64,000 nucleotides of DNA from Rhynchopus sp. YZ270_cl-10 (GCA_964035575.1 OZ037842.1:620001-684000), one strand, 5' to 3'. Counted from the first letter of the stretch, positions 21,558 through 61,601 are shown. Program-made: numbers and translations. Notes: generated by a model from the letters alone, not told the origin.

Positions 21558-22993
21558 TGTAAGGCCCGTCACAGGCCGGGGAAGAAAACCTTTAGGCTTC
21601 AAAAAATAAAAACTGGGAAAGGGAAAAAAGGGGGAAAAGGGGGTGCTGTGTAGACCTGTAGGTGGGTAAGTGAAGGGGGGACCATAAACCTCATGTATTA
21701 CCATTTGCTTCCTATTCTGTTGCCACTTAGACTGAGAGAATGGACTGAAGCCTCGAGGGGTGTGTTGTTATGGTTTAAAAAACGGACCTCGGGTGGAACC
21801 AGGCTAAAGAGCCTGAGGAATCAGCCTCAAGATATGACCGATTGTACCGGAAGTGGACACCCAACCATGCAGTCCTATATCCATTTCGTGGTTTTCAGCA
21901 ATATTCAGGCAGAGAAGAGTGTGCGAAAATGACAAAATCAAACAGTATCTTCTCTCGGATATCCTCAATAAGCAGTACAGTTCTGCTAAAAAGCGGGTTT
22001 TGAAAGAGAGCGGAGAGAGAAAGGAAAAGAGAAGGGGAAAATCTGTTTCTTTGTTTAAAATGCAAAAAAGGAGGTGGGGAGGGCGTTTTATGAAAAGCAA
22101 CATTTTTTTTTTTTTTTTTTTGAAGAGAGAATGGGCCTCATGAGGGGCGCATTTTTGTTTTCAAAAAAAAAAGAGAAAATGAAAAAAAATCCAATGAACA
22201 ACAATAACAACAAAAATTTCGGGAAGAGAAGGGGCGATGAAATCAGGGCCCGATCATTTCCACTTTCCTTTTTAAAAGCTGCCCGCTTTATTCGGGAATA
22301 TTTGGTTTTCCCCCTCATTCCTTAGCGTTATTTTTTGTGGACGATTTACCACACACGAAACAAGGAAAAAGGGGGGGTATCTCGTTGTAAAAATTCTGCT
22401 TAGCAAATTATCCTAACAATTGACGCTAAGTCTCTCGTGCCTGACACCAACCATGCCAATTGTTGGATTGTTTTTTGGGGGAATGGAGTGCACAGCGAAA
22501 AGGCCGAAACTTAGAAGGAGGCCTCAATACGGGCTTTCCAGAGGGGAATTTTTTCTTTTTTTTTGTGTCGACAATCACTGTACACCTACTGGTATAAAGA
22601 TCTGTACTCGCATTTTTTTTTGAAATATTTGAACATTCACTTGTGTTGCAACCGATACATCATATACCTCGAGCAAACCTTTTGTCGTCTATTTTTTAAT
22701 GTTAGCTTTTTATCGACACCCAGAGGGAGGGTGCTCAATGTCACCATGAATATTATTTTTTTGTTCACTCTCACTTCATTCTCAGCGCTACCGAGGTAGT
22801 GTGGATGCTCTTTTGCGTTCTATCCAGAGTAAACCCGGGACCGTGTCCCGGTTGGTGCCATTTTTTCACATCTTTGAGGACGCGGGTTGCCGATATACGG
22901 AGATCACCTCGCCGTTGTTACTACACAGGGTATTTTTTTTTGTCATTTCGAAGATATTCACACAAAAAAAGGAGGGGAAATGGAGGGTTACCA

Positions 22994-23095
22994 CACCGAC
23001 GGTGAAGTAAATGACTTGGCTTGTGGTTTTACTTGCAATAGTGAAACCAGAAGCAACACACCATAAGTCAAGTCAATTTGCGTTACACCGTTGTG
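22994..23095. mobile_element. MITE with CAC...GTG termini and CA 2-bp TSD
   Basis: Imperfect TIR CACCGACGGTGAAGTAAATGAC / GTCAATTTGCGTTACACCGTTGTG, with CA on both sides. Same TIR family as 53898-54132. Confidence 0.65.
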
Positions 23096-25439
23096 CAGTG
23101 ATATGTCCAAGGGTTATTTGTCGAACGGAAGAAAAAAAAAAAAAAGAAAAAGAAAAAGAAAAACTCAAAAGAGAGCGATCATCTTTCAAGTTCAATGGAT
23201 AGGTATTGTGCTTCTTATGGCAAAGTGGTATTACACAAAAAAAAAAAAAAAAAAGGTGGTAGGATGGGGGGAGAGGACCTCCCTCTCGAGGGGAGTTGCC
23301 AACACAGTTTCTTCTTGAGGGATGCAATCATTGATGACGCTGGGAATGCAAAAATAAAATCTGATTTTTTGCGAAAAAAAGGAAAATGAAGGCATCAGAA
23401 GCAAAGAAAGCATGAAAGAGCGAACGTCCCACACGTCGGGTTGCGCAGCCAATAAAAAAGAAAATTAAGTTGATAGTGCAAAACGCCTCTAAGACGCAGG
23501 CACTGGCACTCCGCGGGTTATCGAACCCCCCGGAATGTTGGAAAAAAAAAAATACAAACATACAATAATAATAACTCTATCTTGCAAAATATTGAAGAAA
23601 AAAAAAATGAACATCGCGCACCCCTTATGTAGGTTCCTTTGTAAAAAAGAAAATAAGAAAATTGCTGATCTTCACGGTGGCCTGTACGAACCCTCAGGGT
23701 ACGTTCGTAGCGGGGTACCCCGCGGGGTACCCCAAATAGGGTTTGCCAGGCCACTGTGTTTGGGTGGCGCAAGGTAGTGTTACTGGTGATGATGGTGCTA
23801 CGTGTAGGTTTACCGCACCCCCTCCAAAATCACCTAAAAAAAACCAAACAAATAGTAACCAAAGCCTAGCCCTGACCGCTTAAGGCAAAAGAGCGTCGTT
23901 CGTTGAATTCAACCAAAATAGAGAATAGTTTATAAGATGATCCTAAGCCTCTCGTGCTTCGTCACCTTATCATATTCCAAAATAGATGTCGAATTCTGGC
24001 GTAAAGTGAAGCAAATTTTCAGCGAGATCAAACCGGCTTGCTTTTTTTGGTTGGCTTCTAATCACATTGCATAAAGGAAGGAAAACGCTAAAAGAATGCA
24101 GAGATTCTTTTACGTGTCCAGTTTGTTTGTTTTTTTTTTTTATATATTTTGATTTTGCTTTTTTTTTTTTTGAAAATTTGGCTTGTATTTAGAAGTGTGC
24201 TTGCTCTTGTCCTGTATTTCGTAGAGCAAGCGGGTTGGGGAAGTCACTCAAGAGAAAAAGGTTTTCTCCCTTCGAAAAATAAAATAAAATAAAATGAGGG
24301 GGGGGTGGAGGTGGAGGGAGAGAGAGAAGTTTTAAGTTTCTTCTTTTATTGTAATACAAAAAGCCCATCTTGTCACCGAGCTCTGCAACAATGAATAGAA
24401 AGAAAGAAACAAAAAAAAATTCTCAAAAAAAAGGGGAGATCAAAATACACCATGGATATAGGAGTTAGGGAGAGAGGAACGAAGAAGTGATTAATATAAT
24501 ATTTTCAATCGAAATATCAATGAAAGGACAAAGAAAAATTCATTGGTGTGTCTCCGGGAGGGGGTCGATATTGACAGGTCGTTGACCGACTTCCGAAAGC
24601 ACCATTCATGATATCATTTAATCATCATTACCCGGTGATCAGTAAATCGTGACCACGTGGGGGGGACTCATATTTGGGGTTGGCTGAAGGGGATGATTCG
24701 CAGTTATTGCGTACGTTGTGCACCCCCCATTCAGCCACACCATAATGTATGAAAATAGTAGGATCTGGTAGGTAAGTAAAGTTGTTTTCGTTTGATTGCA
24801 CAATCCTCTGTTTGAGAGATGATTTGGCGACCGTACCCGGTAATACTATTTCTCCTTTAAAACAAGCTTCGTAGGAATAAAAAAAAAATGTGATAGAAAA
24901 CCCAGACAAATGTCATATCCAAAAAAAAATCTCGATAATATTCCTCAGAAAAGAAGACAAAAAAAAATGAGTGCTCGCTGTTAAACCGACAATCACCCAA
25001 AGATAAGAGGTGACTTCCAACTCAAATATCCATCCAAAGGGGTTAGATTAGAGGAGAGTGTGTGTATGTGCTTTTTCTTCCTCTCGTTGAGCGCAGCTGA
25101 ATTTATTGGTGTAAAGCTGTGCAAAACGAAAAACAAAAAAAAATTCCTCCGGAAATATTTTGTCAAAGATTCATTGGGTTTTGTCTTGGGTTTGTATCAC
25201 ATTCTATCAAAAAAAATACAAAGTTGCAAAAACATCTCCGTGGGTCATTTTAGAGAGAAAGAAAAAAAAAAAAGTGATTTTCCCCCACTTTTCCCTCTCG
25301 TAGAGAGTGTCTCTCTCTCTCTCTCTCTCTTTAGCCCTCTATTTGGAGTGCTTCGATTGCAAAATACATAAAGTTTTTGTTTGATTATAGACTACTATCA
25401 CTAGATAGCAGCCACGATATTTTTCTTCCGGATCCGTTA

Positions 25440-25741: not shown

Positions 25742-26837
25742 TAAAGAAAATAAATAAAGTCTTAAAAGAAAAGGTTATAAGATGAACCTAAACCTCTCCT
25801 GCTTAGTCACCCAAAACAAAGAAGTTGAAAAGGCAAGCACCTCACCGTTCATCGGCAGACGCAAGCACTTATTTAAAAAAAAAAAAAATGAATTGGGGGT
25901 GGCTGAAGGGGGTGATTCGCACTTCTTGCGTGCTTTTGTGCACCCCCCCATCCAGCAACACCAAAGAAGGAGAGAAAAAAATATTTTGCTTTCGTCCCAT
26001 TCTGCGTTTCTCCTATATCCATGAGTAGAGCGAAGGCACTGCACGTTCCGCTCCGGGTTTAGTGGGAAGGTTATGTGAGGGAGGTGGGAGGGAAGTGGGG
26101 TTTATGTATTAAATAAAATGGTAAGACGAAAACCGGAGGCTTGGCTAAGAGAAAGCGCCAAGACAACACAAAAGAGAGAGAGAGAGTGTGTGTGTGTGTT
26201 TTTTTTTCTTTTTTTTTTTTGTTGTTGTTGGGATTTTTTTATATCATCGTCACATGTGGACATGACACTAAAGTGGCCCTTACGTGTTATTTAAAAAAAA
26301 AAATGTAGAGTCTCTCGAAAAAAGACCTTTGTGGTTGGGTGAGTGTATTTATCGTTATGCAGTTACCATTTGACCTTTAGAACGGTATTTTGTTCGAAAA
26401 TCTTTCATTTGGCCAAAAATACTGCAAAAATATAAAAATAGAAAAAAAAGAACGAAAAAGAGTCTTTCAGATGAACCTAAGCCTCTCGTGCTCAGTCACC
26501 TTGAAAAAAAAAAATCCCTGACAATAAAGGAAATTTGTAAGATGAATATGCCTCTCGTGCACACACATCTGACAATTAAGGTGTAATTTACAAAAATAAA
26601 ATATGACATTAAAATGTCATTTTCTTGTCTTATTTTTTGGTGTATTTTTTTTTCTCTTGTTTTTTTTATTGTTTTTTTTGTTTGTCATTTTTTTTTTATT
26701 ATTTTTACGTTGTTTTGCAACCGCGGAATACGTCTAAAATGTAACCAGATTTGGTTCTTTTTAAATAAATATCGTATTTTCGAAAACGGGGGAACCCGAA
26801 AAATCGGGAAGGGAGAACGGGAATTGGGGAAAAGAGA

Positions 26838-27037: not shown

Positions 27038-29762
27038 CGCGCTTTTACCCATATGTGTTGCATATCTGAATTTCATTTTTTTTTTCACCACACAAGGTAG
27101 GTGCATATTTTTGTACTCAATGACAACTAGAACCTTGCAGGTCAAAAATAATATTTCATATACGATCTACTCTACTGAATAGAAGGTGAAAAAAAAGAAA
27201 GTAGGTAAGATGAACTTCAACATGTCTTAGGTTGGAACTCACCTGAATTTTTTTTGAATTTTTTTGAATTTTTTTTTGGACAATGTGAACAACATTTTTG
27301 TCGATCGTAAAAAAAAAGAAGGGAAAAAAAAAAAGATAAGATGAACTGTCCTTCTCACACATTGGTACTCCCATCATTAGTACGAATGAAATGTGTAACA
27401 ACTCACCTGACGAATGAATCTGTCCCGAAAAATGGATGGTGCTCAAGCGACTCACCCATAGTCCGACCGCGCTCCGGTATCGAAAAGCGCATGGATGAAT
27501 GACACCCACAGGGTGGGGGTTCAGACATCCAAGAATAGTTACCTGAGAGGTAAGGCATAAGGGGCTGGAGGGGTGGAGGACACCACCTCTGTATTGTCGG
27601 TGGTAACTATTAATAAGGGAAGTTGGTTTAAGACGAAACCTAAGCATTCACAACGCTTGGTTTATCTTAGAAAAAGGAAAAAAGGAAAAATAGAGAAAAG
27701 GGATAAAAGGGTAATGTACCTCACAGCACATCCCATTGTTGTTGTGGTGCTGTTGTGGGTTTTTGCTCATTTGCAAATAATGCAAAAGAAATAAGGAAAA
27801 AGCCCAATGTGTCCACTATTTTGAAAAGTTCGGTGCGGTTCTGTTTTGCTGTTTGCCTTTTTTTCAATTTTGACAAAAAAAAAAATATTGTTTGAGCAGT
27901 GTTCGTGGAATCCACTTTTGAGATATGGTGTTATTTTTTTTTTTTTCTTCTAAAATTCTTGTAGTGAAAACCCACCACCTGTGCACATCTCCGCGTTCAT
28001 TTTCTTTTTTGAAAACTTGGTTGTATTAGTGTAGCCACCCTAGAGTGTGCTCCACTATCCTTTTTTTTTCTCGTGGTTGTAACGTTTTACTGCGGCTGTT
28101 CCCGAGATACGGAACACCTCAGCATCGTTGTGAAGTGGCTGTCAGTAGAAAACGAGAATAATATGCGTTTACTGAGAGAGGTCAACATAAGATGTGACGT
28201 GAAAATACAAAGCCCTCTCGTGACAGTGTACCTCAATAAGAGTAGTACCTGATTCTTTTACTCTTCTACTCCTCAGTCACAAACGGAAAGAAAAAAAAAA
28301 GGATCGGGCAGGTAAATAAAGTTGTTTTCGTTTGATTGCACAATCCTCCTTGAGAGATGATTTGGCGACCGTACCCGGTAATACTATTTCTCCTTTAAAA
28401 CAAGCTTCGTAGGAATAAAAAAAAAGGGGAAAAGACAGCAAAAGAAGGCAACAGGTGAGGACAGTGCGCCACAAAAGGAAAAAAAAAAAATCGTTGTTCA
28501 GAGGGGGAAAAATAATGGAAAAGCTTGTAAGATTGTAAGATGATCCTAAGCCTTGCTTGGTCACCTAAAAGGGTAGAGGTTGTAATGTGACGCAAATGAA
28601 AGTGCGCTTTTTTGAAAGCTCCGATAAAAAGCTAAGGGCATAACAACTTATTTTTCTGGTTCTTTGTTATTCCGACATTCCCAAAATCGTGCACGCAAAA
28701 AAAAAATTTAGGGCGGCTAGTTCTACAGCTCTCCCTGGTAGAGGGGTGTTTTTAGAGGAAAATGTTTCCCTGTTGGTGACGTTTAAACACCGGCATTTGC
28801 ATTTTCGGAATCCGTCCAGCCAGTGGTGGGGTCAATTTGCCGAAATGGACAAGTTCTTATTTTTAGTACAGTACAGTACAGTACAGTTTGAGCATCTGAG
28901 GGGGTGCATCACTACCCGGTGCAGTACTAGTCAAAACTTATTTTTCTGAAGCTCAAAAAAAAAAAAAAAAAGTGCTCGCGCAAACGAGAACCAAGATAAA
29001 AAGTTGTTGTGCCCTCAGGGGAAAAAAAAACAAAAAAAAACCCCCACACGGTCGGGGTTTTTTGAACACAAAAGATTGAAATGTTCCAAACACACGTTTG
29101 ATGCACCATTTGTGAAGACCAGCAAATGGAGAAAAAGGGATGTTCGATCAGATTCGGTTCAATCTGATTTGATTGGTTCCAAAAAAAAAAAACTTTTTTT
29201 TTCTCTTCCACAGAGGAAGGTGTGGCAGACTACCAGACTTCTCGGAAACATGAAAAGCTTCGATTTTTGTTGTGTCGACAATCACCTAAAACCACCCACC
29301 TGAGCAGGGGCATAGATTCTGTACACTCAATGTCGTCCTAAGACTCTTTTTAAACTCCGGAAATTGAAAAAAAACTGTCTGCCAGTCTGCCAGACTTCCC
29401 TCTGCGCTTTTCTTCGGGTTCTTTTGTTTTCGTGGTAGCAACACACACTATTGCTTCCCCCCTTTGCGTTGCTGCATCAACACCCTCAACCCACGAGGTT
29501 CCTTCTACACCCCATCGCCAAGGGGCTAGGATCTTACATACTTTCCCTCCCCCTTTCCCTCACACAGTCGTCCATGCTATACATCCCGCTAAGGCTTGAA
29601 CGTGACATTTCTTTTTGAAGGGACATCAAAGAAAAGGGGGCTCAAATTTTGGTGGACAACGGCAATATGTTAAATTATGCGAAATTGATCTCAACAAAGT
29701 CATATACTTGCCACTTTAACAAGTAAAGGGACGCACTCTTTTGATCTAATATATATTATTAT

Positions 29763-30520: not shown

Positions 30521-33500
30521 AGCGGGGATAAAAGCAATAAAACACATCTTCAGGATCAGACGTGAGGCGCTGTGCCAAAAAAGAGTTGATTTGTGTACGA
30601 TACCGAGGAGGCTGGACACTCACAGAACAGAACACTCGAAAAAAAAAAAATGCATCTCGTTGCACACAACACATCATATGGGTGTGCATCAAAAAAGCAT
30701 GTGGACCACTCACAACAATGAAATTGTAGCAGCAAAATAGCAAAAGAGCAAACTGGCAAAAAATGACAGTCTTTTTTTGAAAACTTTTACCATTCCTTTT
30801 TAGGGAACGGAGACGGGTCTTGGAAACTCCAAAAAAAAAAAAAAATGGAGTCGGTGCACCGAAAGAGGAAGTTGCCTTCCTAAAACGAGCACACAACAAA
30901 AGGAGGTGTCGTTCACTCACCTATATCATCATTGCAACAACACCTCCATCACACGAAAGCACGGTATAGCGATCGCCATCGTTAACAATTGTCCTTGGCT
31001 CATTTTTTTCCTCTCATTGACGAAGATCGCCCGTAATCGACCGGCGATCGCCACCATACCGTGAATAAAAACATTCACACTCACGATGTCGCACCCCCCC
31101 AAAGGCTTCAATATGCTTCTTTGGGAATGGTGCAAACCTCATCGATGAAGGGGGCTGTGGAAAGAGAACAAACAACAAAGGTGACATCTAGGATGGGGGG
31201 AAAACCCCCCTCTACCTGTAGTTGCCTCTACTGTCTTTTTCTCATCGCCACATAATAAAGATGGGGTAGAAAAAAGCTTATAAGATGCAGCCAAGCCTCT
31301 CGTGCTTAGTCATCTTAATATAAAGGGGGGGTGTTTGAGTATTCGACGAATTGGGTAGCCGAAAACTTAAAAAAAGTTGGCTTGAAATACAAAGCCCTCT
31401 CGTGACAGTGTACCTTGGTGCATGACCAGCAAGAAAAGGTTGTGAGATGACCCTAAGCCTCTCGTGCTTAGTCTTGATCGGGGGGAGTTGGATTTTGTTT
31501 TTTTTATCCACATGGTGCTCCGGGAGGGATCGATATCGACAGGTCGCTGACAGGTCGTTGGCCGACTTCCGAAAGCACCACAGAAAAAAGAAAAATTGTA
31601 AAAATGAATGTGCCTCTCGTGCACATGCATCTACCAAAAAAAAAGCGGGGGAACTCCGAGGTGAACCTAAGTAAGCCGTCTTGCTTCGTCACCTACATGA
31701 AAAAAAATCAGATGGCAGTGCGGGGTAACTATTTTTCACTAATGGAAGGATGAATATACCGTGCACACATCTTTTAAAAAAAGGGGGGCTTTTAAAAGCT
31801 TTCTGGACATTCGCTCGGACTTGAAAAGGGAAGGCTTTGGGGAGAGAAAGAGAAAGGGAAAATGGTTTTCAGAAAACAGAGATTTCCTAATCAGTGACAT
31901 TTTTACAAAAAAAAAAAAAAATTACCCCCCCACCCTCCTCGACTTGCGGCCCTTTTTTTAGGCCACAAAGATTCATACAGTTTTTTGCAATCTGGAAAAA
32001 CGTGAAAAAAACAGGGAAAATCATTAGACTCATATACTTTCAGTTCACAGAATTAAAAGCATTTGAGAGGTTCAACACATGCACCCTTTCTTTGAAAATA
32101 AGATATTATTGATGCAGACACCTCCGGGTGACGTACGAGGCCAGCCCCCGGATGAAATGCCAGAAAATGACAGAAAAATTGACAGAAAAAAAAGTTGATA
32201 AATGCAAAATAGAAAAAGAAAACAAAAACAAACAAAAACAATGATCGATCGTCGTCTGATATGCAGGTTGTCTGAACCCCCAGTGGTTTCTCCCGCCCCC
32301 CCACTCCATCCCCTCCTATTCTCTCTATCTAATATTTTGCATTGTGCTGAGCATTGTAAACGAAACAAACAAAAAGGAATCGCTCGTTAAAAAAAGTTCT
32401 GTACATGGAACACTAACGTTGGGGTTTCGTGTCGTTGATTCGAATTTAAAAAAAAAAATTGCATTCGAAAATAAAAGAATAGGCGCTAGCTGTCAACAGT
32501 TATCACCCCACAAGATCGGGTGAGACGTGGACAGTCACATTTTTTGGTGTTAGCCGTGAGAGAGTGATGTGTGAAAAAAAGGAGAGAAAAAATGGTAGCT
32601 GATGCTAAAACGCATCTCGGCCGAGCTCATGCAAAGGGCGGGGCGTGGGTGTTAGAACGGCAGGCGGTTCACAACCGCTCGGCGAATCACGCAACCTCTT
32701 AACACCCCAGCCCTTTTTTGGCTAAAAAACAAAAAACTAATATGATTCTGCACAATTGCTAATTACCGTAAAATGGTAAAATGACGCTTCACATTTTGAA
32801 GGAAGCAGACCGTTGCAAATAGCACAAATTTGGGCACAGCCAGTTTTTTTTGAAACTTATTTTCGCATTTTTTTTTTTTTTTGTCAAAGATATATTCTTT
32901 ATTGTGACAGCACACCCCCCTTCACACCGCTTCTGCCTTCCTAAAATTTAACTAACCAGGATATTGTCTGATTGGGCATAACCCCCCCTAGTTAATTTTA
33001 CGAATACGCTTCCCTTATTGGTGGCAGTATTCACCCGCTTGGAAGGTGATGTTTTATTAGCAGAGAGTACTCAAAAAAATGATAAACAAAAAGTGAGAAG
33101 GGGGGAGCTGTGCTGTCTTCAGGGCGTTCGCTATCGCCATCGTTTTTCCTGAATCGTGGCGAAATGCCAAAAAACCCGAAAATTTTGCATTTTTACTAGT
33201 GCTTAAAATAGGTCAAAAAAAATTTTTCGCCGGAGAGAAGCTAGTTCGTGGGGGTGAATCCCTGGTACTGAGTGATAAAAAAAATTTTGCGATTTGCGCG
33301 TGATACCTTCCCCAGCACTAATACCAGCAAAACGATGGAGAATTTCAGCAATCCCCCCCTCACTGAGGATCTCTTTGTGCTGTTTAATCAAACAGATGTA
33401 CTAGAGAGAGGCATCTGTCATATGAGACTTCATCCTTAGTTTGATTATTTTCAATAAACTAAACCGTCTCTCTGCCTCCACCGAGGTTGAAGATAGAGTT

Positions 33501-33832: not shown

Positions 33833-33841
33833 GCTGTCTTA

Positions 33842-33900
<59 letters not shown>

Positions 33901-34533
33901 GTGATGCGAGAAGGAGGGGTGAGGAATGGAGATGGTGATCAAAACTGGGGATAAAAATAATTCATATACATTCTTTTCTTAGCGAAACAAAAAGAATGCA
34001 AAGAGGGTGCAAAAAATGTACCCTTTCCTAAAACTGGGGATAAAAATAAAATAAAAATGGCAGGAGAGAAAATATGATGGCCTAGAGAAAGAGAAAAAAA
34101 AGCTGAAAGTGCTAACGCCTCACCGTTCATCGGACGCATGCAATGGAAGAAAAGGTGGTCGAAAAAAAAAACTGCCCTTCTTAGTTTTTGACAGAGGGTC
34201 TGGGAGGATAAAATTGAAGGAGTTTAAAGGAAGTCTGTCCTTTTTTTTGCGAATTTGTTTTTGCGAAGCTGTGCATACACATAGCCTCTACGAAACAGAA
34301 AACACATTATCATTGCAAAAACTGCCTCAGATCTGGGGCAGTCTTTTTTTTTTAAAAAAACTTCTGGGGTGTGTTCAAAGCAGCTGTGGGTAGTTCAGTT
34401 CGTAAGAGCGGAACATTGCCCAGCTTCTGTGGTGTCTGAGGCGGTAGGCTCCAACAAAGGAAAACCACCCTCAGCACGAAAAATGCTGAAAACTCCAAAA
34501 AAAAAGGGGGGGGGCTTTTTTTGTTGATTTTTG

Positions 34534-34913: not shown

Positions 34914-35458
34914 TGAAGTCTAAGAGGGGGGAAAGGGAGGTGGAAAAATAATGATGATCGATGGTCGTAACTCCGTCAAATGCTGCAAAAATTGAGCATT
35001 CCTGATATATTTGATATAAAACCGTTTTCCTTTGAAAACTATGTTATTGTGTTGACACCCAAGGATGCGCTCCAATAATTGGTTGTCTTTTTTTTTTTTT
35101 TTTTTTTGATGATCTGTTTTTTTTTTTTTAGTGCTGTCATACAGACAGGTCTTTGCTATCAGTTTTATAAAAGTTGGTCTTTGGTTTGAACCTGACCCTT
35201 AGACGAAGTTACGTAGAAAGAAAAAAGAAAAGAGAAAAAAGAAAAAAAGAAAAAAGAAAAGAAAAAGCATCGCAGCAAACCCACTTCGAATCACTCTTTT
35301 GAGGACAGGGGGAAGAAAAAAAAATAAAAGGTAGTCACCAGCGAGTGAGCTATTGATAAAAAATGATGCACATTAGTCGTGTGCTGAGAGTGGTGTGTGG
35401 CGATACACTGCATTTTGGTTGATTTTTTTCTTTTTTTCTTTTACTTTTTTTGATAACT

Positions 35459-35566: not shown

Positions 35567-35883
35567 TAACTGGTTGCACTACGACATCCTAGGATGTGTT
35601 TCACATGGTATGCTTATTTTTGAATGAAAAATAAAAAAAACTTGGTTGTATTAGTGGATCCGAGGATGCACTCCACTATTTTTTTTTTGTGGGGGATAAA
35701 AGTTGATTTGTTGCAGATGAACCAAAAGTTCATTTTTTTTTTTCTTTTTGTAGATGCAACAAAATGACAAAGAAAAAAACCCAACAAACGATGACAAAAA
35801 ATAGAATGAAACAAAAAAAAACAAAAATCTCAAAAAGAGGGAAAGAGCAGAAAATAGTGATAGCAAAGGGCATGAGGTAATGA

Positions 35884-37820: not shown

Positions 37821-38804
37821 AAAAAAAAACTAAAAAAAACATGATGAATGTGTCTCTCTCGCACACATCTCTATCAAAAAGGGTTGGAAAATGACCTTCT
37901 TCCTCTTTCCTTCAAACCTTTGGGGAAAAAACCCCCCGTTTTCTTTTAAAAAAAAAATGTCCCTCTTTTTCCCTGGCACTTCGTCTTGGTCCTTGTACAC
38001 TGCCAATGGGCATGGGCTCTTTTTGGTTTTTCTTTCATTTAACGATATTCGATGGAAATCCGTTGTAGGTTAAAAAAAGGGCAGGGGAGAAAAAAAAAGT
38101 GAACGAGAAGCGTTGTGCACCACAAAACGCCGTTATATCATAAATGGGAGGGAGGGAAATGACCGAACGGGAGTTCGGGAAAAAAGGAAAAAAAAAAAGA
38201 ACAAAAAAAAAAAAAAAAACGAAAGACGTGGTAGTAAAAGGTGCAAACGCCCCACAGGGCATTGGGAACCTTTCCCCCAAGAAAATGTTGTTGAGATAAA
38301 CGTCATCCTTCTTTCTCGAAATTTTTGAAAAGAGAGAAAGAGAGTACGTGAAGTCCTTTTACAGTAACACAACAGACATCATATGTTTTAAACATTTTCT
38401 CTCTTCAAAAAAATAAACGAAAAAAATAAAGCAAAAAACTTCACCGTGATAAATCATAAAAAGAAACGAACATAAAATAAAACATCATACAATAACAAAA
38501 CACCCCAAAATATGGCACTGATTATTCTTTTGTTTTCTCTGTATTTTTTTTCTTATTAAAACCTCCCCAATCCCCCCTCCCCCCCAACCCCCCCTTATTC
38601 TTTCTGATCGAACCAAAAAAACCTCTTTCTTTCTCCTCGGAGGGTATTCCCCGGGGTGTGGTCAAAAAAAAAAAGTGAAGTTGATAGTGCAAACGCCTCT
38701 GGGACGCAGGCACTACTGACACTCCGAAAAAAAAAATAAAACAATTTCCTTTTAATTCTCCTCTTTTCTTGGCACACACATGCCTTTTTATGTATTTATT
38801 TTTT

Positions 38805-44069: not shown

Positions 44070-44774
44070 TGTGTGACCGCTTTCCCCCTACCCCCTAAGC
44101 AGGGTCCTCCCTCTCGTGTCCCCTAAGGGGTGAATGTCTTCCAACCCTCTGCAAGTGGATGTGTGATGCGAATGTTTAAGATGGGAACGGAGCCTCCCGA
44201 TGCAGAGGAAGCCTGCATGGAAGAGAGACGGAGAGAGAGAGGAGAGGTCCTTTTTTCTTTTTTCTTTTTTCATTCGACAAAATCCATGAACAGCACTGTA
44301 GAACAGAGTGAAGAAGCGTGGTCTTTGTTGCCCCCTTAGCTCCCTTTAGAAAAGAGTGCGAAGGGGAAAATGCAAAACGCAGGTGCTCTCCTTTGTTCGC
44401 ATCGAAGAGACGTTTGTTGTATTTTTGCAAAGGTTTTTTGGGAGGAAAGACAAACCCAAAATAACATAGAATTAAAGCAGATTTGAGTTAACAAATCGCT
44501 TTTTGTTGTCGACAATCACCCTGCTAATGCAGGATCTGTACGCAGTGTTTTTTTGTTTTTGTTGAATATGCGAAGAAGAGCTCTTATGGAGTGTGTTCAA
44601 CCTTTATTTTTTTGAAAAAAAAATTTTACCACGTTTTCGTGTACACAACGGAGGTGTCGACACTCACCTTAATCATTGAAATAACAGTGTTTACCAAATG
44701 ATTCCTCCGATACTTCCATTTTATTCAGAATCTCAAAGGAATCACAACACACTAATAAAATACAACCATGTTTT

Positions 44775-45887: not shown

Positions 45888-46173
45888 AGGGGGGTGGGTC
45901 TGCAGGGTAATGTTGCAAAGGGTTGGAGAAAATGTATTGCTCATGAGAAAGGGAAAATGGGGATTTTTTTGGAATGCATTTCTGATGTAAGAGGCTAGAA
46001 AAACAAAATGCTGACTGCTTTTTTTTTGTCGAATCGCCTATCCGAAGGGGTCAAGACCCCAAGGGGCTAGAATTTTTTTTGAAAAATTGGTATTAGTGAC
46101 ACCGGATGAGCTCCACTATAAAATTTTGTTTGTGCTGAAATACACAAAATACATAAAAAAAAACCCCCCACAA

Positions 46174-47205: not shown

Positions 47206-49448
47206 TTTTTTTTGGTTGTGTGTTCTGAGGTGGGTAGGTCGTAACGTCAATTCCCAAGAATTTGTGTGTTGAGAATCAGAGATGTGAAAATATGGGGAAA
47301 AAAGGGGGTCAGTTGAGATCGTATTTGGCGTTAAAGATAGTGAAGAAAAGACAACAAAAAAACAACGTTTAAGTTTAACTTTAACCAAAAGAAAGAAAGT
47401 TTTGTGTAAGATGAACCTAAGTATCGTGCTTAAGTCACCTTCTTTTAAAAAGGGCGGAAGGTGTGGAAGTACAAAGGCCTCTGCGGGCAGAGGATATTGG
47501 GACATAGTATGTCATATAAAGTGAGAAAAAAACGAAAAAAAAGTTTGAATATGTGCCTCTCTCTCTGGGCACATATATTTCAAAAAAAGGGGGGAAATAA
47601 AACTAAAGTGGAAAAAAAAAGGAAACTAAGGGAGTGCCCCCCGTTCTATATAATGAGGAACTTGTTGTGCTGACGCCCACCTACTAAGATAAGGTCTGTG
47701 ATCGCCCGAAGGCTATTGATGGAACATATTTTTTATTTCTTTATTTGAAAACTTGGGCAAAAATCACGTGTCGCAACAGAATATATCCACGCCACGCCCA
47801 CCCTCCGCCCAGCTTACTTCCATTTCGCGGTCTACGTTGAGATGTCCTACTCCCGCTACCGCTCGTCAGTCAACGAAACGGGTATAATTGGAACACAAGG
47901 GAGCAAATCCTTGTGCGAAGTAAGTGATTCGGGATTTATTTATCAACCCAGTTGTGCGGCAAAACCGATTGATCCCTCTAGTGCTCTAATGAGAATCCTT
48001 TGCCAAACCTTTACACGTCATCTGAGGAACTAACCCAAGGACGTTAGCAATACAAAACAAAAACGAGCTTTTTCAAAAATAAAATGAAAAATGCAAAAAA
48101 TAAAATTGGGTCACACAGTGAAATAACTCAAAACCACACGCAGTTTGAACGGGAAATATCACATATTTTCGTTCCCGTGCACATTTTCACCCCCTCCAGA
48201 CAACGTTGCCTTGATAATCTGTTGATTTGGTAGAGTCATGCAGAACGTCTTTTTTTTCGTGGAGGGAAAAAAGAAGAAAAGAAGAAAGAAAACGAGAACC
48301 AAGGGTCCTTCGGCTTTTGCCGCACAATTTTTTTTTTCATAAACACACATCGGTGTTCTGACGGAGAGCGTGTCTCGGGAGTGAACAGAAGTGTTGATAA
48401 AGATAATCTAAGCATCTCGTGCTTCACCTCGAAAGAAAAATACATAAGATGACCCTAACCCTCTCGTTCTTACCTTGATAACATTCGATACCGCGCAGCA
48501 TCGTGGGTTTCCACAAATCTCAGTCATCTAGAAAAGGTTGCGAGATGACAAGCTTCTGCTGCTAAGTCACGAAATTCACTGATGTTTGTTTGCTGTGTTA
48601 CTGTACAGTAAAGTTGGAAAAGTGCACGTCTCTCAGGTGCACGGTATCCATGTAGAATACAACTGTTTTTCTTTTTGTGGAGAAGTGCTGGATCAAGGGT
48701 GCAGGGCCACCACGTATTGGCATAAATTTGAGCTGAAATACAAATCCCTCTCGTGGCAATCCTACAAAAATCTGCTGGATATTACAGAAGACTACCCCAA
48801 GATTAGACGCCTCCTGCGGATGCACTAAATAAAGGGGAGAAAGTTACACACTGAATGTACCTCTCCGTGCACATATGAGAGGGGGTGAAGAACTCATGAT
48901 GAAAAAAAAAACAAGTAATTGCTATCGGAAAAAAAACGGGGTGTGATGTGGAACTCATCCTGTAGAAATAATCTACAACACGCCCAGCATTCTGCTCTTC
49001 TGCAGGTATGCTAACGCTCTTCGTACGCTGCCAGACCCACTGGGACGCCAGCATCTGAAACATTCAAGAAGGGGGGCTGTCCTCTTCGTCCAGCACCATC
49101 TGCTCGATAGCGTTGTTGGACGTCGGCTCGGCAGGCTCGGCGTGTTCCAGCTCGTTTTTGTCCACAGGCTCCCCACATTGTCGTCGTCGTTGGAGCAGTG
49201 TGGAAGGAACACAGAGTGCACAGACTACAACACATCGATCACACCAGGCGCATCAGCACGTCCAGCAAATCGCCAGGATGCTACGGTGGTTTCGAAAATC
49301 GCGCGTCGTTTTCCACCCCACACCCCGTTTTTTCTTAGCAATTACTTGTCCTTGTTGTTATTGTTGTTTTCAACCACCTTCCTTCAACCCTTGCAGGATC
49401 ATTTTTTTCGCGAAAACATGAAATTACACATTTCAAGAGAACAAATTA

Positions 49449-52609: not shown

Positions 52610-53463
52610 AGTTATGTGTTTCTTTTCTAGAATGTGATGAGAGGTGGGTCAGTTTTGCTAGAGAAAAAAAAAACGGTAGGACGTTGAAGAGGGGCAAAGA
52701 TATCAATAATAATTGAGGGACAGAGGGAACCTCAGGGGAGGGGGGAAGGGAGGAGGGGCATTTTTTTTTGTTTGTCAAAAATGCGGTAGTACTGTTTCGT
52801 CTTTGATTCATTTTTGAAAAAAAGCCCTCAGTCGAGGATCCTATGTTCGCTATTTTTTATTTTTTTGTTTTGTTTTGTTTTGCTTTTTTTTTTTTTTTTT
52901 TTTTTTTTTTTGAAAACTTGGTTATATTAGCGAATCCACCCTAGAGTGTGTTCCACTATAAAAATTTTTTTTTTGTGTCTTTTACTTTTTGGGTTTTTTT
53001 TATTATTTTAGTTATGGTTATTCTTAGTTGGGTTTACTTGGCCATTTTTTCTCCTTTTTAAATTTTTTAACTTTTTTTTTTCCCCCTTCAAATCAGCGAA
53101 CGGGATCACTGAGCAACGTTCTTATAAAGATAATAAATAAAAAACATTCTCTTTTTTTTGTCGCCCTTTTTTTTTAATCTCTGAAACCAGTCAGCCACTA
53201 TACAGATGGCGAACACTACAGCCGTTTCCTCCTTCCCCTCTAAGGCTTTTAGCGTCCTCTTCTGTACTGCCATATGCCCCTATGCTTCACGTCACATAAC
53301 AATCAAACTTACAAACATCCTCCTCCTTGAGACCCCACTACAATAGCATTACAATGCAGTAACAACCTAGAAAGTTAAAAACACAGGTCTTACCTCCATC
53401 AGCCTTCCGGTTGATGGATTGCCTCAGTACGTTTAAACAATTTGTGATTTGATAAACACTTCA

Positions 53464-53633: not shown

Positions 53634-53897
53634 TTTTTTTTTTTTTTTTGGGGGGGGTTTTACGGGGGTTATGTCAGATGAACCTAAGCCTGTCATTGCT
53701 TAGTCTCCTTTTGATCACAAATTGTTGCAAAATTAATGTAAAAAAAAAAAAAAAGGTGGGTCTGATCACCGTGCAGACGCAGACCACCCCCTGTCAGGCA
53801 TGTATCACCTCCATTTAAAAAAAATCACCGCGACAAGGCCGTCTCTCGTCTTGGCCCCCGTATACGTTGTACTATCACCTAAAGAGCTGCAGAGGTA

Positions 53898-54132: not shown

Positions 54133-54405
54133 TAACATTCGTTGGTGGGGTGGGCAAGGTATGGGGTTCTTTTTTCCCTTCTTTCTTTGGTTAAATTTTG
54201 GAGAAAAAAAAAGGCTTGAAACATATAGGCTCTCTGATGTACACACATCATAGAAGCAAAAAAAAAAAGGGTGAAGTTGGTAATACAAACGTCTCTGGGA
54301 CCCCACGCAGCATTCATACAAATCGTCTCATATACTAACTATTCTACTGAATAGAAGGTATAATAGGGTGCACTAAATGTACAAAGAAAACCCCGCCCCC
54401 CCCCT

Positions 54406-58245: not shown

Positions 58246-58328
58246 GCCCCCCCCCTCCACCCCTCTCCCATGCAATTCGATACCCAAACCCCCCCCCCCC
58301 CCATTACCCTTTTAAAAAAAAGTACCCT

Positions 58329-60485
58329 TTAGTGTGATTTTGGTTTTGGGAGATCGTGAAGAGATGCGTATGAAGGGCGAGGTTTTCCGAGAGGAAATGG
58401 GTGGCCTTCTGTGGTCAAAACATATTTGGTGAGCGGGAGGAAGGAGGGGTCGGTGAAGAGAAGGAAGAGGTATTTGAGCGTTTCCGCGATGAAGAAGGAT
58501 TCCATGCTTTTTTTCTGTTTCGCGTCTACATCGGTCACAGCATCTACTCCTACGTAGCCCCCTTCTGCTACCTTACAATGTGTTTCAATCGCAGTAAAGA
58601 TCCTCCACCCAACCTTTCTGTACCACGGCTTCTTCGTAAACCTATAAAAGTAAAACAACGACTCCACAGCCTCAGGTCTCAAAATATTAAACGGTTTTTC
58701 TACCGTCATTTTCCCATCCTTAAATGAATATGCCTCTGCACCCAGCTGCAACTCCGTTTCATCGTACATCAAAACGCACGTTGTCATCATATCCTCCGCC
58801 CATTTGAACAACTCCTTTTCTTCCTCTCCCATAGCGTCCATGGACCATCCGGTTAAGGAGACGATGTGAAGGAGTATGGTTCCTGGTAAAAAGCAGGACA
58901 AATGATCCATCCGTTTGTGAAGACTACCGCTGCGGAGGAAGCCGAGAAGAGTGTATTTCCCTTCTTTGTCTGAAAGGTGTCTGCGCATGCCTTTGGTACT
59001 CTGTTTGAACATATCGTTATAGATGTTGTACGTCGCGTACGGCCCGGAGATGTCCCCTGCGTCATCATCCTGTTTGTTCACACCACGCTTCTCGAGGTTA
59101 AGCATCGCATCCGGGTTCGACAAAATATATTGTTTCAAAAGACACTCATAAAACGAATCCCCCAAGCTCCCGACACTATACGTATTCGAAGCGAATCTCC
59201 CCTTCAGCGGGTTAATGAACAGCGGGTAAAGCCCATCCAAATACCCTTTCCTCTGAGTCGTCTCCTCAACCTGCTCTACAACGTCTTCAGATCCGTCGCT
59301 CGTAATCCGCTTTTCGACAATATCTTTCACTACAACCGACGGAAAAAAAACCTCAAACGCTTTGGTAACCACTTGATCATATTTTCCTTCCCCAAGAAGC
59401 CAAGAAAGATACCGCCATTCAAGTTGAATGGACCCTACTTCACTGAGAATCACATTGTCTCTCGTCCACGAGTAGGTTCCGTGGTGGTGGGTGGTGGGGT
59501 TGAAGAGGGTGGGAGGAACCCCGGTGGGGTAGATGTCGAAGGCGGGGAGAAGGGTATCGGCGATGTCCTTTGCCTTCTCGAGGAGGACGTCGTCGACGGA
59601 GAGGGTGTATGCGCCAAGGAGACCGCCAATGACGCGAATGGTTACCTCAAAGACGGAAATGTTGCCGTTGTGTATGGGGTTAAGGTTTTGATCGAGGTAG
59701 GCCACGCTTTCGTCAAATTCCTGCCGCAGGCCCATGATCCAGAGGGTGTCTAGCGAATCAATCATGGTAACGGCGTATGGTTGGTCAAGAGACCAATCGC
59801 GGTAGCCGCTGCCAGGGTGCGCCTCGTCGTGGCCCCAAGCGTATTCAGTGTACCCCTTCCACGCATGGAGGGTTGCGTCCACAACCGCCGTCGCCTTCTC
59901 CATGTCTGTGTCGCCGCATTCCTGGTCGTATTCGTCCACCCGGTCGTCCTTAACCCGCCACACCCCATCGTCCTGTCTAATGAGAGGGTGGTCCACGTTC
60001 TGTGGTTCCTCCCAATTTTTTGGTGCAACACAAAACGAAGGGCGTCCCCCAAATGGTTTAAACGGCTTTCCATCCAACCCCATCCGTCTCTGGTTCAGCC
60101 CGGTTCCAGGTTTGCGGCGTGGGGTGTCCTCAGCGCGGGGTGGTTTCGCTGCTTTTCCGGTGGTGCTCCGGCTGGGGCGTTTTACTCCACTTAAAACCGG
60201 TTTGACACGCCGTTCGCCTCCCCAGCCTGGCTCTTCCAATTCATCGGGTGCGGTGGGGGGTGTGGGAACGCGTTTCTTGACCTCGCGAAGTTGGGGTTGC
60301 TCTTGAGGTCGGGTGTGCTGGTATTTGTTCACGTAGTGGAGGGAGGCGCCCAGAAGGAGCAACGCGAAGAAGACAATGGGGACAATAGGTTTGCGTGTAC
60401 TGCTGCGCGGCCGCGCAACCGTTTGAGGAAGGTGCGCCGTATGGCTCGAAGGGATCACAATGCCAACGGAGTGCCCCCTATGCAT
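58329..60485 (-). CDS. Class I alpha-1,2-mannosidase (glycoside hydrolase family 47), type II membrane protein
   Basis: 718-aa ORF with an N-terminal TM and motifs HAWKGY.EYAWGHDE, IDSLDTLWIMGL, SVFEVTIRVIGGLL, EVGSIQLEW, GSLGDSFYE.LLK, DHLSCFLPG, LRPEAVESLFY, MESFFIAETLKYLFLLF and TEGHP. Confidence 0.96.
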   Translation of the reverse strand: MHRGHSVGIVIPSSHTAHLPQTVARPRSSTRKPIVPIVFFALLLLGASLHYVNKYQHTRPQEQPQLREVKKRVPTPPTAPDELEEPGWGGERRVKPVLSGVKRPSRSTTGKAAKPPRAEDTPRRKPGTGLNQRRMGLDGKPFKPFGGRPSFCVAPKNWEEPQNVDHPLIRQDDGVWRVKDDRVDEYDQECGDTDMEKATAVVDATLHAWKGYTEYAWGHDEAHPGSGYRDWSLDQPYAVTMIDSLDTLWIMGLRQEFDESVAYLDQNLNPIHNGNISVFEVTIRVIGGLLGAYTLSVDDVLLEKAKDIADTLLPAFDIYPTGVPPTLFNPTTHHHGTYSWTRDNVILSEVGSIQLEWRYLSWLLGEGKYDQVVTKAFEVFFPSVVVKDIVEKRITSDGSEDVVEQVEETTQRKGYLDGLYPLFINPLKGRFASNTYSVGSLGDSFYECLLKQYILSNPDAMLNLEKRGVNKQDDDAGDISGPYATYNIYNDMFKQSTKGMRRHLSDKEGKYTLLGFLRSGSLHKRMDHLSCFLPGTILLHIVSLTGWSMDAMGEEEKELFKWAEDMMTTCVLMYDETELQLGAEAYSFKDGKMTVEKPFNILRPEAVESLFYFYRFTKKPWYRKVGWRIFTAIETHCKVAEGGYVGVDAVTDVDAKQKKSMESFFIAETLKYLFLLFTDPSFLPLTKYVLTTEGHPFPLGKPRPSYASLHDLPKPKSH

Positions 60486-61601
60486 GGTGCCTCCCCGCTT
60501 ACCGTCTCGCCTCCCAACTGTGGTGGTGGTGGTGTGGTGGGAGAAGGCTGGGATGGGGGGGGAGACAGTGAGGGAGGTCGTACTTCAATTGCTTTAGTGG
60601 GATCCAACCTCTGAGATGAACCAAAAGCTGGAGTCTCAACTAGAGGGTGTGATTATGACACTGTGTTCGACAGGTCAGAGGCTGGACCCCATGTAGAAGA
60701 GGTTTTCTATAAAAAAACACCATTCATTTACCCTCCCTGACAGAATGGTTTGCATAAGGGCGGACAACGGGAGGAAATATAAACTAGAGGGAGGGAGGGA
60801 GAGGTATTTTTTTTAATCGCTTTCGGCTTTTCGGCCAAAAAACATTTTTTTTTTCTGGGGGGAAAAAATGCCCAGGAATAAAAGGGGTTTTTAAAAGGGG
60901 GGTGGGAATGGGATTGGGTGGGAAGGAGTGTGTGTCTTTGTATGTTTTTTTTTGTGGGGGTTGTATCCCAGCTGTTTTTCTGAGCTCTACCGAGGAGAAT
61001 GCAGGAGGGATGTCACCCCCACCCATTTTTTTTATTGGCACCTTCACCTTACCCGATGAATGGCGATACAGTGTAGAGTATGTTTGCTGTCTTAGACACT
61101 TGTTATAGAGTACCCTCAGGAGTTGTGGGGGAGGAAAGAACAAAAATAAAAAAGGTAATATGCCCGTAAACCTCTCGTCGCTTACGTCATATCTAAGGCA
61201 ATGTGTAATGTGCAGTGCACATTTAAAAAAAAAAAATCAACAACAGGCGGTATTTTAAAATGTACAACTCGCCTGGCTTAACAGAGAATGGAGAACAAAC
61301 AAGATATTTTTTTTTGGGGGGGCAAAAAAAAAGGGAAAACAGAGGCATTAAATGATGTGAGGGCCTGGCACATTGATCCATTCTTCTCAATGGCCATCTG
61401 AACAGGGTGTAGTACGCATCCTCCTCTCTGTGACGATCCATTGTTGGGTTTTCATGTGAAGCGCGGTTGAAGGCACTTTCGTTTCCAACAATAGGTTCAC
61501 ATCGCACCGTCATAGCTATTCAGAATTTACTTATTTTTCGTGTTTTGAACACGCACCTCGCATTCAACTCATGCAAGAAAGCACTGAGGAAAGAAGAAAA
61601 C

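Follow-up and report, generated by a model that had tools for sequence, protein, structure and literature searches.

Small hairpin repeats in the non-coding DNA of a diplonemid gene cluster all face in the same direction as the genes. They were found in a window of 64,000 nucleotides from Rhynchopus sp. YZ270_cl-10 (GCA_964035575.1, OZ037842.1:620001-684000), whose own coordinates are used throughout, and range in length from 30 to 120 nt across families. Within this all-minus window the co-orientation is strict, with 49 of 49 validated copies, spread over 11 families, lying on the minus strand. The copies act as mobile DNA rather than as fixed signals, a behaviour that follows from their variable distance to genes, the presence of a copy in an intron, broken base pairs, clustering and the lack of a constant order. 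The explanation that fits them best, with a probability of about 0.45, is that they are minimal, promoter-less retroposons that are copied via RNA and transcribed by polycistronic read-through.

The gene cluster and its hairpin families

All seven genes of the window lie on the minus strand, in a cluster that runs in one direction, and the best named match of its GH47 protein is from Diplonema papillatum (44% identity). For that species the parts of the genome account used here (PMC10161547) describe polycistronic clusters, gene control thought to be post-transcriptional, long 3' UTRs, LINE/SLACS/R2-type reverse transcriptase (RT) ORFs, Helitron-like ORFs and RNAi genes. No additional coding segment was detected in 21705-38804, which leaves a 17-kb spacer without genes that holds 30 of the 49 validated copies.

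Copies were assessed by leave-one-out nhmmer searches of both strands, with E<=0.05 counted as a pass, among 62 candidates in 12 families. The family letters are those of this analysis, of which E and F seem to correspond to those used in a sequence-only reading that preceded it. Passes were obtained for 11 of 15 candidates in A, all six in B, five of seven in C/J, four of five in D, all eight in E, five of nine in F, both in each of G, H, I, K and L, and neither of the two in M. The copies located below passed and lie on the minus strand except where stated.

In the diverged A copy at 22418..22450 (E=0.02) a stem with a bulged A carries a C(GAGA)G loop and is followed by a 2-nt 3' bulge and a U-rich tail. 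Other A copies are at 23934..23968, where a 10-bp direct repeat on both sides is a candidate target-site duplication (TSD), 25779..25813, 26469..26502 (the reference copy), 28537..28567 (loop deleted), 31282..31316, 31445..31478 (5' arm diverged), 47408..47441 (upstream of the likely start, ~47205, of a His-phosphatase gene), 48401..48430, 48446..48480 (without the 5' arm) and 53676..53710. A weaker minus-strand copy at 31658..31697 has a leave-one-out E of 0.75 and was gained by a covariance model (E=0.004) from outside its training set, while 61155..61194, also minus, is a weak candidate (E=0.39) that was a member of the training set. Family B has the apical motif of A on different stems, with copies at 26538..26571 (flanked by a 12/13-bp direct repeat, again a candidate TSD), 31600..31633, 31746..31774 (loop deleted; E=0.043), 37843..37876, 47545..47582 (loop expanded) and 48850..48880. 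Family C occurs in a long form with an additional 5' hairpin (23467..23535; long form also at 39827..39895), a short form (38678..38726) and a diverged copy (54274..54312); a T-loop-like 5' hairpin is present on two of five C copies. Family J amounts to C with an apical-loop insert (34101..34142), with a second, weaker minus-strand copy at 25826-25866. Family D lies at 28203..28234, 31384..31416, 40307..40342 and 48735..48766.

Family E consists of an outer stem, a 5-nt 5' bulge, a YUNG-loop hairpin and an A/C-rich tail followed by an A-run. Its copies at 28012..28058, 35035..35076, 35637..35679 and 40960..40995 were found by nhmmer and covariance model alike, and the others are at 35570..35606 (diverged; E=0.028), 40752..40794, 46082..46119 (55 nt past a stop codon) and 52913..52959 (with a long A-run tail). 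In family F a variable hairpin sits within a conserved core that ends in an A/C-rich tail; copies at 22565..22612, 29270..29342 (long variable stem) and 44504..44546 (without the 5' arm) were recovered by both methods, and those at 41306..41360 and 41445..41497 by nhmmer. Two minus-strand F candidates fall below the pass, 22706..22745, gained by the covariance model from outside its training set (E=0.031), and 47662..47712, a weak training-set member with no leave-one-out match. The remaining families have two copies each: G at 24546..24604 and 31512..31580 (strand uncertain), H at 24676..24742 (a long hairpin) and 25895..25962, I at 25372..25416 (a 10-bp hairpin, then an A-rich tail) and 43862..43906, K at 27156..27188 and 54328..54360, and L, of ~120 nt, at 24770..24885 and 28310..28423, the L copies being 93% identical over 136 nt. 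Two related minus-strand repeats were recognised by other means, namely a longer repeat of ~190 nt at 47735..47930, marked by unique-contig breaks and loose ends, whose last 10 bases are those of family E and are followed by an A-rich tail, and, by tail comparison, a single hairpin at 24170..24232 with an E-like tail and A-run.

The orientation of the 49 copies represents 38 free choices, to which each two-copy family contributes only one bit. Assuming independence the probability is ~4e-12, an assumption weakened because copies cluster, neighbours lying a median of 138 nt apart vs 241 nt (p=0.017). Reversed-sequence controls with the 12 models gave four matches at E<1, the best at E=0.068. 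The sole plus-strand nhmmer match at E<=0.05, obtained with the D model at 41480-41506 (E=0.037), overlaps the small hairpin of an F copy, another (E=0.07) falls within the MITE at 34534, and the covariance models gave no plus-strand match below E=0.36; a 19-nt minus-strand match lies in the GH47 coding sequence (58722, E=0.006). An unbiased count of shared 13-mers, with coding sequence and transposon blocks masked, gave 37 on the same strand vs 2 on opposite strands, which became 0 vs 2 once the families were also masked, when 9-mers stood at 230 vs 229.

These counts bear out the sequence-only reading, which had proposed about 50 copies from at least eight families, each in one orientation, and had noted that nearby MITEs occur in either; the MITEs at 34534 and 53464 do face in opposite directions, with 98% identity over 53 nt, as a pair of only two copies. 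Its placement of copies in the spacers between genes holds with one exception, the I copy at 43862..43906, which sits in a GT-AG intron (~43776-43956). In the spacer 45888-46173, for which it had listed an E and an F-like copy, the E copy at 46082-46119 passes and the F-like one is not significant. Distances to the nearest stop codon run from 55 nt to 16.4 kb, and among the 49 copies in this window no constant spacing to start, stop or splice sites was found. The 23 adjacent copy pairs show 19 different family orders.

Folding and stem decay

More stable folds are obtained on the minus strand for 41 of the 49 copies, with 7 favouring plus and one tie, compared with 732 minus and 667 plus for 1500 background sequences. 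The earlier proposal that the motifs fold on minus stands for most copies and does not extend to family G of the present lettering, which folds better on plus. With DNA parameters the minus strand is still more stable in 34 of 49, the strand difference shrinking to -0.43 kcal/mol. Family medians are -7.3 to -14.2 kcal/mol for RNA and -0.1 to -5.5 kcal/mol for DNA, and as DNA the stems drop more than half their stability. Among 464 stem cells there are 58 G-U and 14 A-C combinations, a count that leans towards minus because the structures derive from minus-strand folds. Departures from Watson-Crick consensus pairs include 21 G-U, 10 A-C, 5 double changes and 43 other mismatches, and many copies have broken stems or missing loops.

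An arm-swap test detected compensation in F (p=0.0007), E (p=0.004) and B (p=0.026) and none in A, C and D; against shuffles, covariation, which had been suggested as a check, showed no excess in A (287/500) or E (55/500). One apical 7-mer is common to families with unrelated stems and is distributed 17:0 by strand in non-coding DNA. The UUCG loop read earlier turns out to be confined, in E, to one copy of eight (40752..40794), the others having CUAG, CUCG or CUUG. At position 43899, in the intronic I copy, there is a genome-wide A-U/G-U polymorphism in which pairing is kept only on the sense strand. Differences from the majority are more frequent in 5' than in 3' arms (39 vs 22, p=0.04), although the count by copies, 15 vs 7, is not significant (p=0.13). 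On the transcribed strand the copies present a stem-loop with a conserved loop, an internal loop and a short tail, as is expected of a LINE-dependent, SINE-like element.

Copy number, tails and insertion

Judged by sequencing depth, C, E, F and I are repeats of high copy number across the genome. In run X1 coding sequence and introns have a depth of ~100-120x, whereas two F positions reach 97,389 and 141,977, an I position (43862..43906 copy) 47,565 and a C bin (short form) a mean of 65,281; the ratios of ~400-1,250 at single positions are inflated by overlapping contigs and indicate order of magnitude only. At the C end 88 and 84 contigs exit the window into dissimilar flanks. Tails are U-rich in A-D and A-rich in E, F and I, and the 5' flanks are likewise U-rich for A-D (22/28) and A-rich for E, F and I (15/17; p=4e-7). 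Family E, the repeat at 47735 and the hairpin at 24170 share a terminal 10-mer, which has six matches in the window, all on one strand, against 0.89 expected; reading the tails by eye revealed no terminal motif running through every family. Candidate TSDs scoring >=16 were found at 2 of 53 copies (10 and 12/13 bp), with 0.58 expected and a rank-test p of 0.19. Target sequence alone cannot produce the strand lock, because A-runs and T-runs are nearly equal in number (308 vs 269).

Rfam and tRNA (ARAGORN) searches returned no match for the hairpin families, in keeping with the earlier failure to recognise a known RNA family, and the same searches show no Pol III head of tRNA, 7SL or 5S derivation. 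There was no match to an Rfam ribozyme model that would signal an HDV-like ribozyme or Pr77, and the length of most families falls short of 79 nt, the size of the SIDER 5' signature. A MITE identity was rejected, since MITEs have TIRs, TSDs and random orientation, in contrast to the 49:0 orientation, asymmetric stems and unpaired tails of the hairpins.

Origin of the strand-locked hairpins

How could a hairpin of this size multiply and yet be kept on one strand? As retroposons, each element would consist of a sense-strand hairpin and a short unpaired tail, which a LINE-type RT would copy in trans. Sense copies would be transcribed as part of the polycistronic precursor and would need no promoter of their own; the RT may recognise the element by its conserved apical loop together with the bulge beneath, much as happens with the 3' stem-loops of L2 elements in eel and zebrafish, and the tail could anneal to a complementary homopolymer at a nick and prime reverse transcription. 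The weakest step concerns the lock itself, which might arise from template-strand-biased nicking, from loss of antisense copies, or both; an antisense copy would pair with many sense copies to give double-stranded RNA, and RNAi genes are present in this lineage. This explanation is preferred because of the very high depth of C, E, F and I, the decay of the stems and the lack of a positional rule. It is also favoured by the siting of U-tailed families in U-rich and A-tailed families in A-rich tracts, the terminal 10-mer shared with a longer non-coding repeat, the 5'-arm excess, the two candidate TSDs, the large loss of stem stability as DNA and the polycistronic clusters, RT ORFs and RNAi genes of D. 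papillatum. Against it count the lack of overall TSD enrichment, the non-significant 5' excess per copy and tails ending in U, which LINE partners seldom have. Within the window neither a partner RT nor an autonomous element with these tails was seen.

Leishmania SIDER1 and SIDER2, grouped with RIME/NARTc/TSIDER (ingi/L1Tc clade), the lineage's known case, are similarly non-coding, dispersed, degenerate and sense-biased repeats in the spacers and UTRs of euglenozoan directional gene clusters. In the portions of the SIDER papers drawn on here they measure ~550 nt, carry a signature of 79 nt at the 5' end and an A-rich stretch at the 3' end, and favour the sense orientation by ~4:1 in total, with antisense copies enriched within spacers (PMC2323293, PMC2689281). 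TSD vestiges of 11-19 bp occur in a minority of SIDER copies (PMC2323293); the two candidates here measure 10 and 12/13 bp. The hairpins differ in being 30-120 nt long, in forming at least 11 families, in their 49:0 orientation and in the U-rich tails of A-D, only E, F and I having an A-rich stretch. The orientation ratio and antisense-rich spacers of SIDERs weigh against the retroposon explanation, and the SIDER analogy drawn in the sequence-only reading is loose. SIDERs are also marked by an effect on mRNA stability. A secondary account, used in part (PMC6510757), gives the 3' tails of eel UnaL2/UnaSINE1 and zebrafish ZfL2-1/ZfL2-2 a purine-rich conserved apical loop, a hinge-like internal loop, a short tail, loop-insertion variants and a 3' end common to elements of unequal length, all of which have counterparts here. 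There, however, the hairpin terminates a longer element that bears a promoter and whose LINE partner is known, whereas here hairpin and tail appear to be the entire, orientation-locked element.

A possible, though rather unlikely, alternative is that the hairpins are selected cis-acting pre-mRNA elements, protein-binding sites that package long intercistronic RNA and UTRs, shield them by blocking 5'-3' exonuclease or tag them for decay. They would have spread through short duplications or by gene conversion, with only sense copies kept. The strict sense orientation (copies and 13-mers alike), the apical 7-mer across unrelated stems, the arm-swap compensation in F, E and B, the pairing at 43899 and the post-transcriptional control proposed for D. 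papillatum all fit; however, distances to genes are not constant, A and E do not covary above shuffles, A, C and D lack compensation and many stems or loops are damaged. Moreover, functional selection alone neither purges neutral antisense copies nor explains hundreds of near-identical ones. The nematode operon Ur element, a sense-strand intercistronic signal of polycistronic pre-mRNA, was considered and set aside: the part of the source used here (PMC7668243) places it ~50 nt before the trans-splice site with a TAYYTT hexamer, which occurs in just 5 of 43 tails here, and the hairpins keep no constant position relative to genes. Of the three options in the sequence-only reading, the retroposon branch fits best, the labels "domesticated" and "cis-acting" stay tentative, covariation being absent in A, C and D, and the small-ncRNA option fails on size and the AGA box. 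Such ncRNAs, cut from the precursor as H/ACA-like snoRNAs or spliced-leader (SL) guides, would explain a single hairpin with an internal loop and short tail in local sense-strand clusters, as in trypanosomatids and Euglena. They are very improbable, given that H/ACA-like RNAs measure 57-91 nt with an AGA box directly after stem I in the part of the source used (PMC2613932), that A-E are 30-50 nt with no conserved post-stem AGA in tails read by eye, and that the copies are numerous, near-identical and decaying. The core of F shows complementarity of 7-8 nt with the conserved part of euglenozoan SL exons (PMC3795323), but chance alone would give about one 7-mer match to a 39-nt SL across ~450 positions.

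The hairpins could also move as single-stranded DNA through an HUH endonuclease, inserting into one strand only (the displaced strand of R-loops or the lagging strand), which we consider doubtful. Bacterial REP/BIME with RAYT and non-autonomous Helitrons/Helentrons are imperfect palindromes of 30-60 nt, intergenic, high-copy, clustered and mostly TSD-less, features matched here by REP-like size, clustering and the absence of TSDs in 51 of 53 copies; the minus-strand advantage under DNA parameters and the Helitron-like ORFs of D. papillatum point the same way. Transcription and replication frames are indistinguishable within this window, and under this explanation the lock could track replication instead of transcription. 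The hairpins differ from those elements in their eukaryotic host, G-U-rich stems and single orientation. Set against HUH mobilisation are the low stability as DNA, the small strand difference, the failure to see a terminal motif across families and the A-rich tails that E, F and the repeat at 47735 carry. Scattering from a single larger transposon consensus, which the sequence-only reading had named as a refuting outcome, or duplication local to this region accounts for the clustering and the near-identity of the L copies but is largely refuted by the varied family orders, by spacers without residual same-strand similarity after family masking, and by the high depth and numerous dissimilar flanks elsewhere in the genome.

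Some copies of the retroposons favoured here may have been co-opted as UTR elements. Comparable minimal, promoter-less, strand-locked hairpin elements were not found described in the literature. An unlikely extension is that diplonemids harbour promoter-less RNA elements of 30-50 nt that exploit read-through, lie strictly on the gene strand and now provide a genome-wide sense hairpin code, with C-GAGA-G loops, for intercistronic RNA handling. If this is true, these elements would be among the smallest mobile units known.

Strand lock of the hairpin families

The hairpin repeats of 30-120 nt that occupy the gene spacers, sorted here into lettered families (J being a variant of C), are locked in orientation, and this lock is a real and striking feature of the window. 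Self-BLAST and profile searches yielded 62 candidates in 12 families, 49 of which, from 11 families, passed leave-one-out searches of both strands at E<=0.05, and all 49 lie on the minus strand, the sense strand of all seven genes. The 13 candidates that failed are excluded from this count, and the tests of clustering, order and direct repeats make use of 53 copies, namely the 49 together with four weaker ones. Two matches run contrary to the rule, one of the D model on the plus strand (E=0.037), overlapping the small hairpin of an F copy, and one of the I model on the plus strand inside a MITE (E=0.07); a stray 19-nt match falls on the minus strand within the GH47 CDS (E=0.006). Covariance models of A, E and F added two new minus-strand copies and gave no plus-strand match in the window below E=0.36. 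The lock is confirmed by a seed-free count, since with CDS and transposable-element blocks masked the shared 13-mers number 37 on the same strand versus 2 on opposite strands, a ratio that falls to 0 versus 2 once the families are also masked (9-mers, 230 versus 229). The claim of the sequence-only reading that within each family all copies share a single orientation is upheld, as is its observation, reproduced by self-BLAST, that a nearby pair of MITEs (34534 and 53464) face opposite ways.

To what is the orientation locked? Because every gene in the window is on one strand, the 49:0 ratio would fit a lock to transcription, to replication or to chromosome arm alike. Where C adjoins D or E in contigs from other loci, the relative orientation is the same, among the 15 joints listed of 420.

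Anatomy and folding

On the sense strand, families A, B, C/J and D have an outer and an inner stem parted by a small bulge or an internal loop; the apical loop combines a bulged base with C(NAGA)G, and a tail of 10-15 nt that terminates in U-runs follows. J differs from C by an insert in the loop. In non-coding DNA the 7-mer of this loop is found 17 times on the sense strand versus 0 on the opposite strand. Resemblance to the sarcin-ricin loop is confined to this short word, and a mimicry reading was dropped. In E, F and I the loops are of YUNG type and the A/C-rich tails finish in A-runs; F keeps its core around a hairpin that varies in sequence and length. The UUCG loop named by the sequence-only reading is present in only one of eight E copies.

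Sense-strand folding is supported, with the more stable fold on minus for 41 of the 49 copies and on plus for 7, against a background of 732 versus 667. Modelled as DNA, the stems retain less than half of their RNA stability. The exception is family G (24546-24604 and 31512-31580), which folds better on the plus strand, where a 7-bp terminal stem ends in CCA; ARAGORN makes no tRNA call on G, and a tRNA origin was dropped. Two C copies (23500-23548 and 39860-39905, minus) bear an additional 5' hairpin whose loop resembles a tRNA T-loop/B-box, and no A box was seen by eye in either. Hairpins at 39574-39618, 39662-39700 and 54362-54385 (minus) are probably members of additional families that are present locally once or twice; position 54382 is where 54 contigs from other loci stop.

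Among 464 stem cells there are 58 G-U versus 14 A-C, a comparison biased toward minus by the use of minus-strand folds, and the departures from Watson-Crick consensus pairs comprise 21 G-U, 10 A-C (p=0.07), 43 other mismatches and 5 double changes. Covariation across the families is modest, and does not exceed that of shuffles in A or in E. An arm-swap test, which is helped by subfamily relatedness and by E and F each having been split at its own fold, found compensation in F, E and B and none in A, C and D; template switching could be an alternative source of such compensation. With RNAalifold on MAFFT alignments, short stems were obtained for E and B and no consensus structure for A, F or C/D.

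The statement that no known RNA family is recognisable stands, in that Rfam gave no match in the window at the gathering threshold, and ARAGORN found no tRNA across it; at E<=10 Rfam gave 41 weak matches, among which miRNA models on MITE palindromes rank highest. Several other identities were dropped. Pairing of F with the SL exon involves a 7-8-nt complement, which is at chance level (SL exons from PMC3795323). Noncanonical hairpin introns are described from Hemistasiidae, not from spacers (PMC12621601), and the introns here are GT-AG with the copies outside CDS. The position and hexamer features given for the Ur element (PMC7668243) are not seen, nor are the size and AGA-box features given for H/ACA-like RNAs (PMC2613932).

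Genomic setting, placement and abundance

The window is taken from its coding content to be nuclear DNA of a diplonemid, because the best named relative of its GH47 mannosidase is from Diplonema papillatum (44% identity). The other six genes, likewise on minus, are a Cys-rich ORF, a cyclin, an intron-bearing charged protein, a metallophosphoesterase, a His-phosphatase and a membrane protein. The Cys-rich ORF at 3-21704 (minus) is unbroken, has at least 7,234 aa and runs off the window edge; past an N-terminal part that bears a vWA-like DxSxS motif it holds mainly Cys-rich EGF/laminin-like repeats (both labels given by eye), and its product is likely a giant surface or extrusome protein. A coding search found no coding signal in the 17-kb spacer at 21705-38804, within which lies a 200-N assembly gap (26838-27037). 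D. papillatum is reported to have unidirectional gene clusters, SL trans-splicing, spacers of >10 kb, 3' UTRs of ~800 nt, a full RNAi set and numerous ORFs of reverse transcriptases (RT) and DNA transposons (PMC10161547).

Other repeats share this setting. Palindromic MITE-like elements were located by self-BLAST at 22995-23105, 29735-29950, 33720-33830, 35455-35570, 35875-36005, 37460-37830 and 53890-54140, some with copies in opposite orientations, whereas the hairpin families keep to one. A very high-depth block at 48900-50755, whose 195-aa ORF has no Pfam match, ends in five near-identical 260-bp tandem units, with related single units at ~28795 and ~61717. A second high-depth block of ~3.9 kb (54390-58250), likely a non-autonomous DNA transposon, has a 34-nt inverted repeat near both ends (54406/58245), GC-rich palindrome arrays and an 8-bp tandem array (56999-57231). 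In the element at 36180-36865, whose terminal inverted repeats are long, a 21-22-bp palindrome forms arrays, and internal parts are shared with 54739-55400.

The hairpin copies lie from 55 nt to 16.4 kb beyond the nearest stop, 30 of the 49 within the 17-kb spacer and one inside a GT-AG intron. They are clustered (p=0.017, 53 copies), and the 23 adjacent pairs show 19 different family orders, which excludes pieces of a single consensus; the sequence-only reading had named fragments of one transposon consensus as an outcome that would speak against it. U-tailed families sit in U-rich flanks and A-tailed families in A-rich ones, the 5' side included (p=4e-7). A-runs and U/T-runs have similar frequencies on the two strands, and target sequence does not account for the strict lock. 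The last 10 bases of E are also the end of a ~190-nt repeat (47735-47930), and nearly the same end closes a lone hairpin at 24170, an A-rich tail following in each case. Changes number 39 in the 5' arm versus 22 in the 3' arm (p=0.04; per copy 15 versus 7, p=0.13). Two copies are flanked by direct repeats, one of 10 bp and one of 12/13 bp, with no excess of such repeats across the 53 copies.

Five sequencing runs contain the region, none of them recorded as RNA, a listing that carries no information on expression. Four were mapped over 38001-57000 and, as exons, introns and spacers are covered evenly, they are probably DNA. In run X1 depth is 100-120 over unique sequence, 97,389 and 141,977 at two F positions, 47,565 at an I position and on average 65,281 in the bin containing C; the single-position ratios are ~400-1,250, and as summed contig depth does not measure copy number they give an order of magnitude only. 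More direct is the finding that in two runs 88 and 84 contigs part from the window where C ends and continue into dissimilar flanks. At position 43899, ~59% of the depth carries a letter that turns A-U into G-U on the sense strand and would give a mismatch on the other. Median identity between family members in the window is 76-87%, which means that old copies coexist with young ones. Metagenome contigs (A and C) and viral contigs (A) gave no match in exact-pattern scans, a weak test of presence in other species.

Origin of the hairpins and its meaning

The elements are judged mobile by their high copy number, their decay and their freedom of placement. An RNA intermediate is indicated by the sense-strand fold with its G-U pairs, the match between tails and flanks and a common 3' end. 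Tentatively, with a probability of about 0.45, the elements are taken to be tail-only retroposons, most likely a novel, miniature kind of non-autonomous retroposon. The hairpin would be the RT recognition site, the tail would provide the primer-annealing end and transcriptional read-through would supply the RNA, the candidate causes of the lock being template-strand nicking or loss of antisense copies via RNAi.

Selected cis-acting elements find their best backing in the common loop and in the compensation shown by E and F; free placement and broken copies weaken this reading, which is rather unlikely. Movement as single-strand DNA by an HUH enzyme would suit the scarcity of target-site duplications and the REP-like size, but the stems are weak as DNA and such an origin is doubtful. 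That the copies are small ncRNAs is improbable, and that they are remnants of one element, given the diversity of order among adjacent pairs, highly improbable.

SIDERs are ~550 nt long with a 79-nt signature, shorten mRNA half-life and, for SIDER2, keep target-site duplication vestiges in 18.9% of copies (PMC2323293); they are ~4:1 sense and antisense-enriched in spacers (PMC2689281). The hairpin families may act in a similar way but do not belong to the SIDERs, and their near-absolute lock is stronger. According to a secondary account (PMC6510757), eel and zebrafish L2 tails require a specific loop and internal loop, and one such tail has a second hairpin inserted in its loop, much as J differs from C. 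A diplonemid genome note is, in its available portion, silent on repeats (PMC13598402), and no description of diplonemid repeats of this kind was found in the literature, leaving aside Additional file 1 of PMC10161547, which may list them among ~10,000 repeat motifs; the feature is apparently undescribed so far.

If these are tail-only retroposons, polycistronic transcription makes a promoter head dispensable and a mobile element can shrink to the hairpin that its enzyme recognises, and the near-absolute lock would imply transcription-coupled insertion or strong purging of antisense repeats. Structured elements have been postulated in the spacers and long UTRs of diplonemids, a marine group that is abundant and about whose gene control little is known. 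The hairpins are the first concrete candidates for such elements, and could serve as markers of transcription direction in unannotated genomes.
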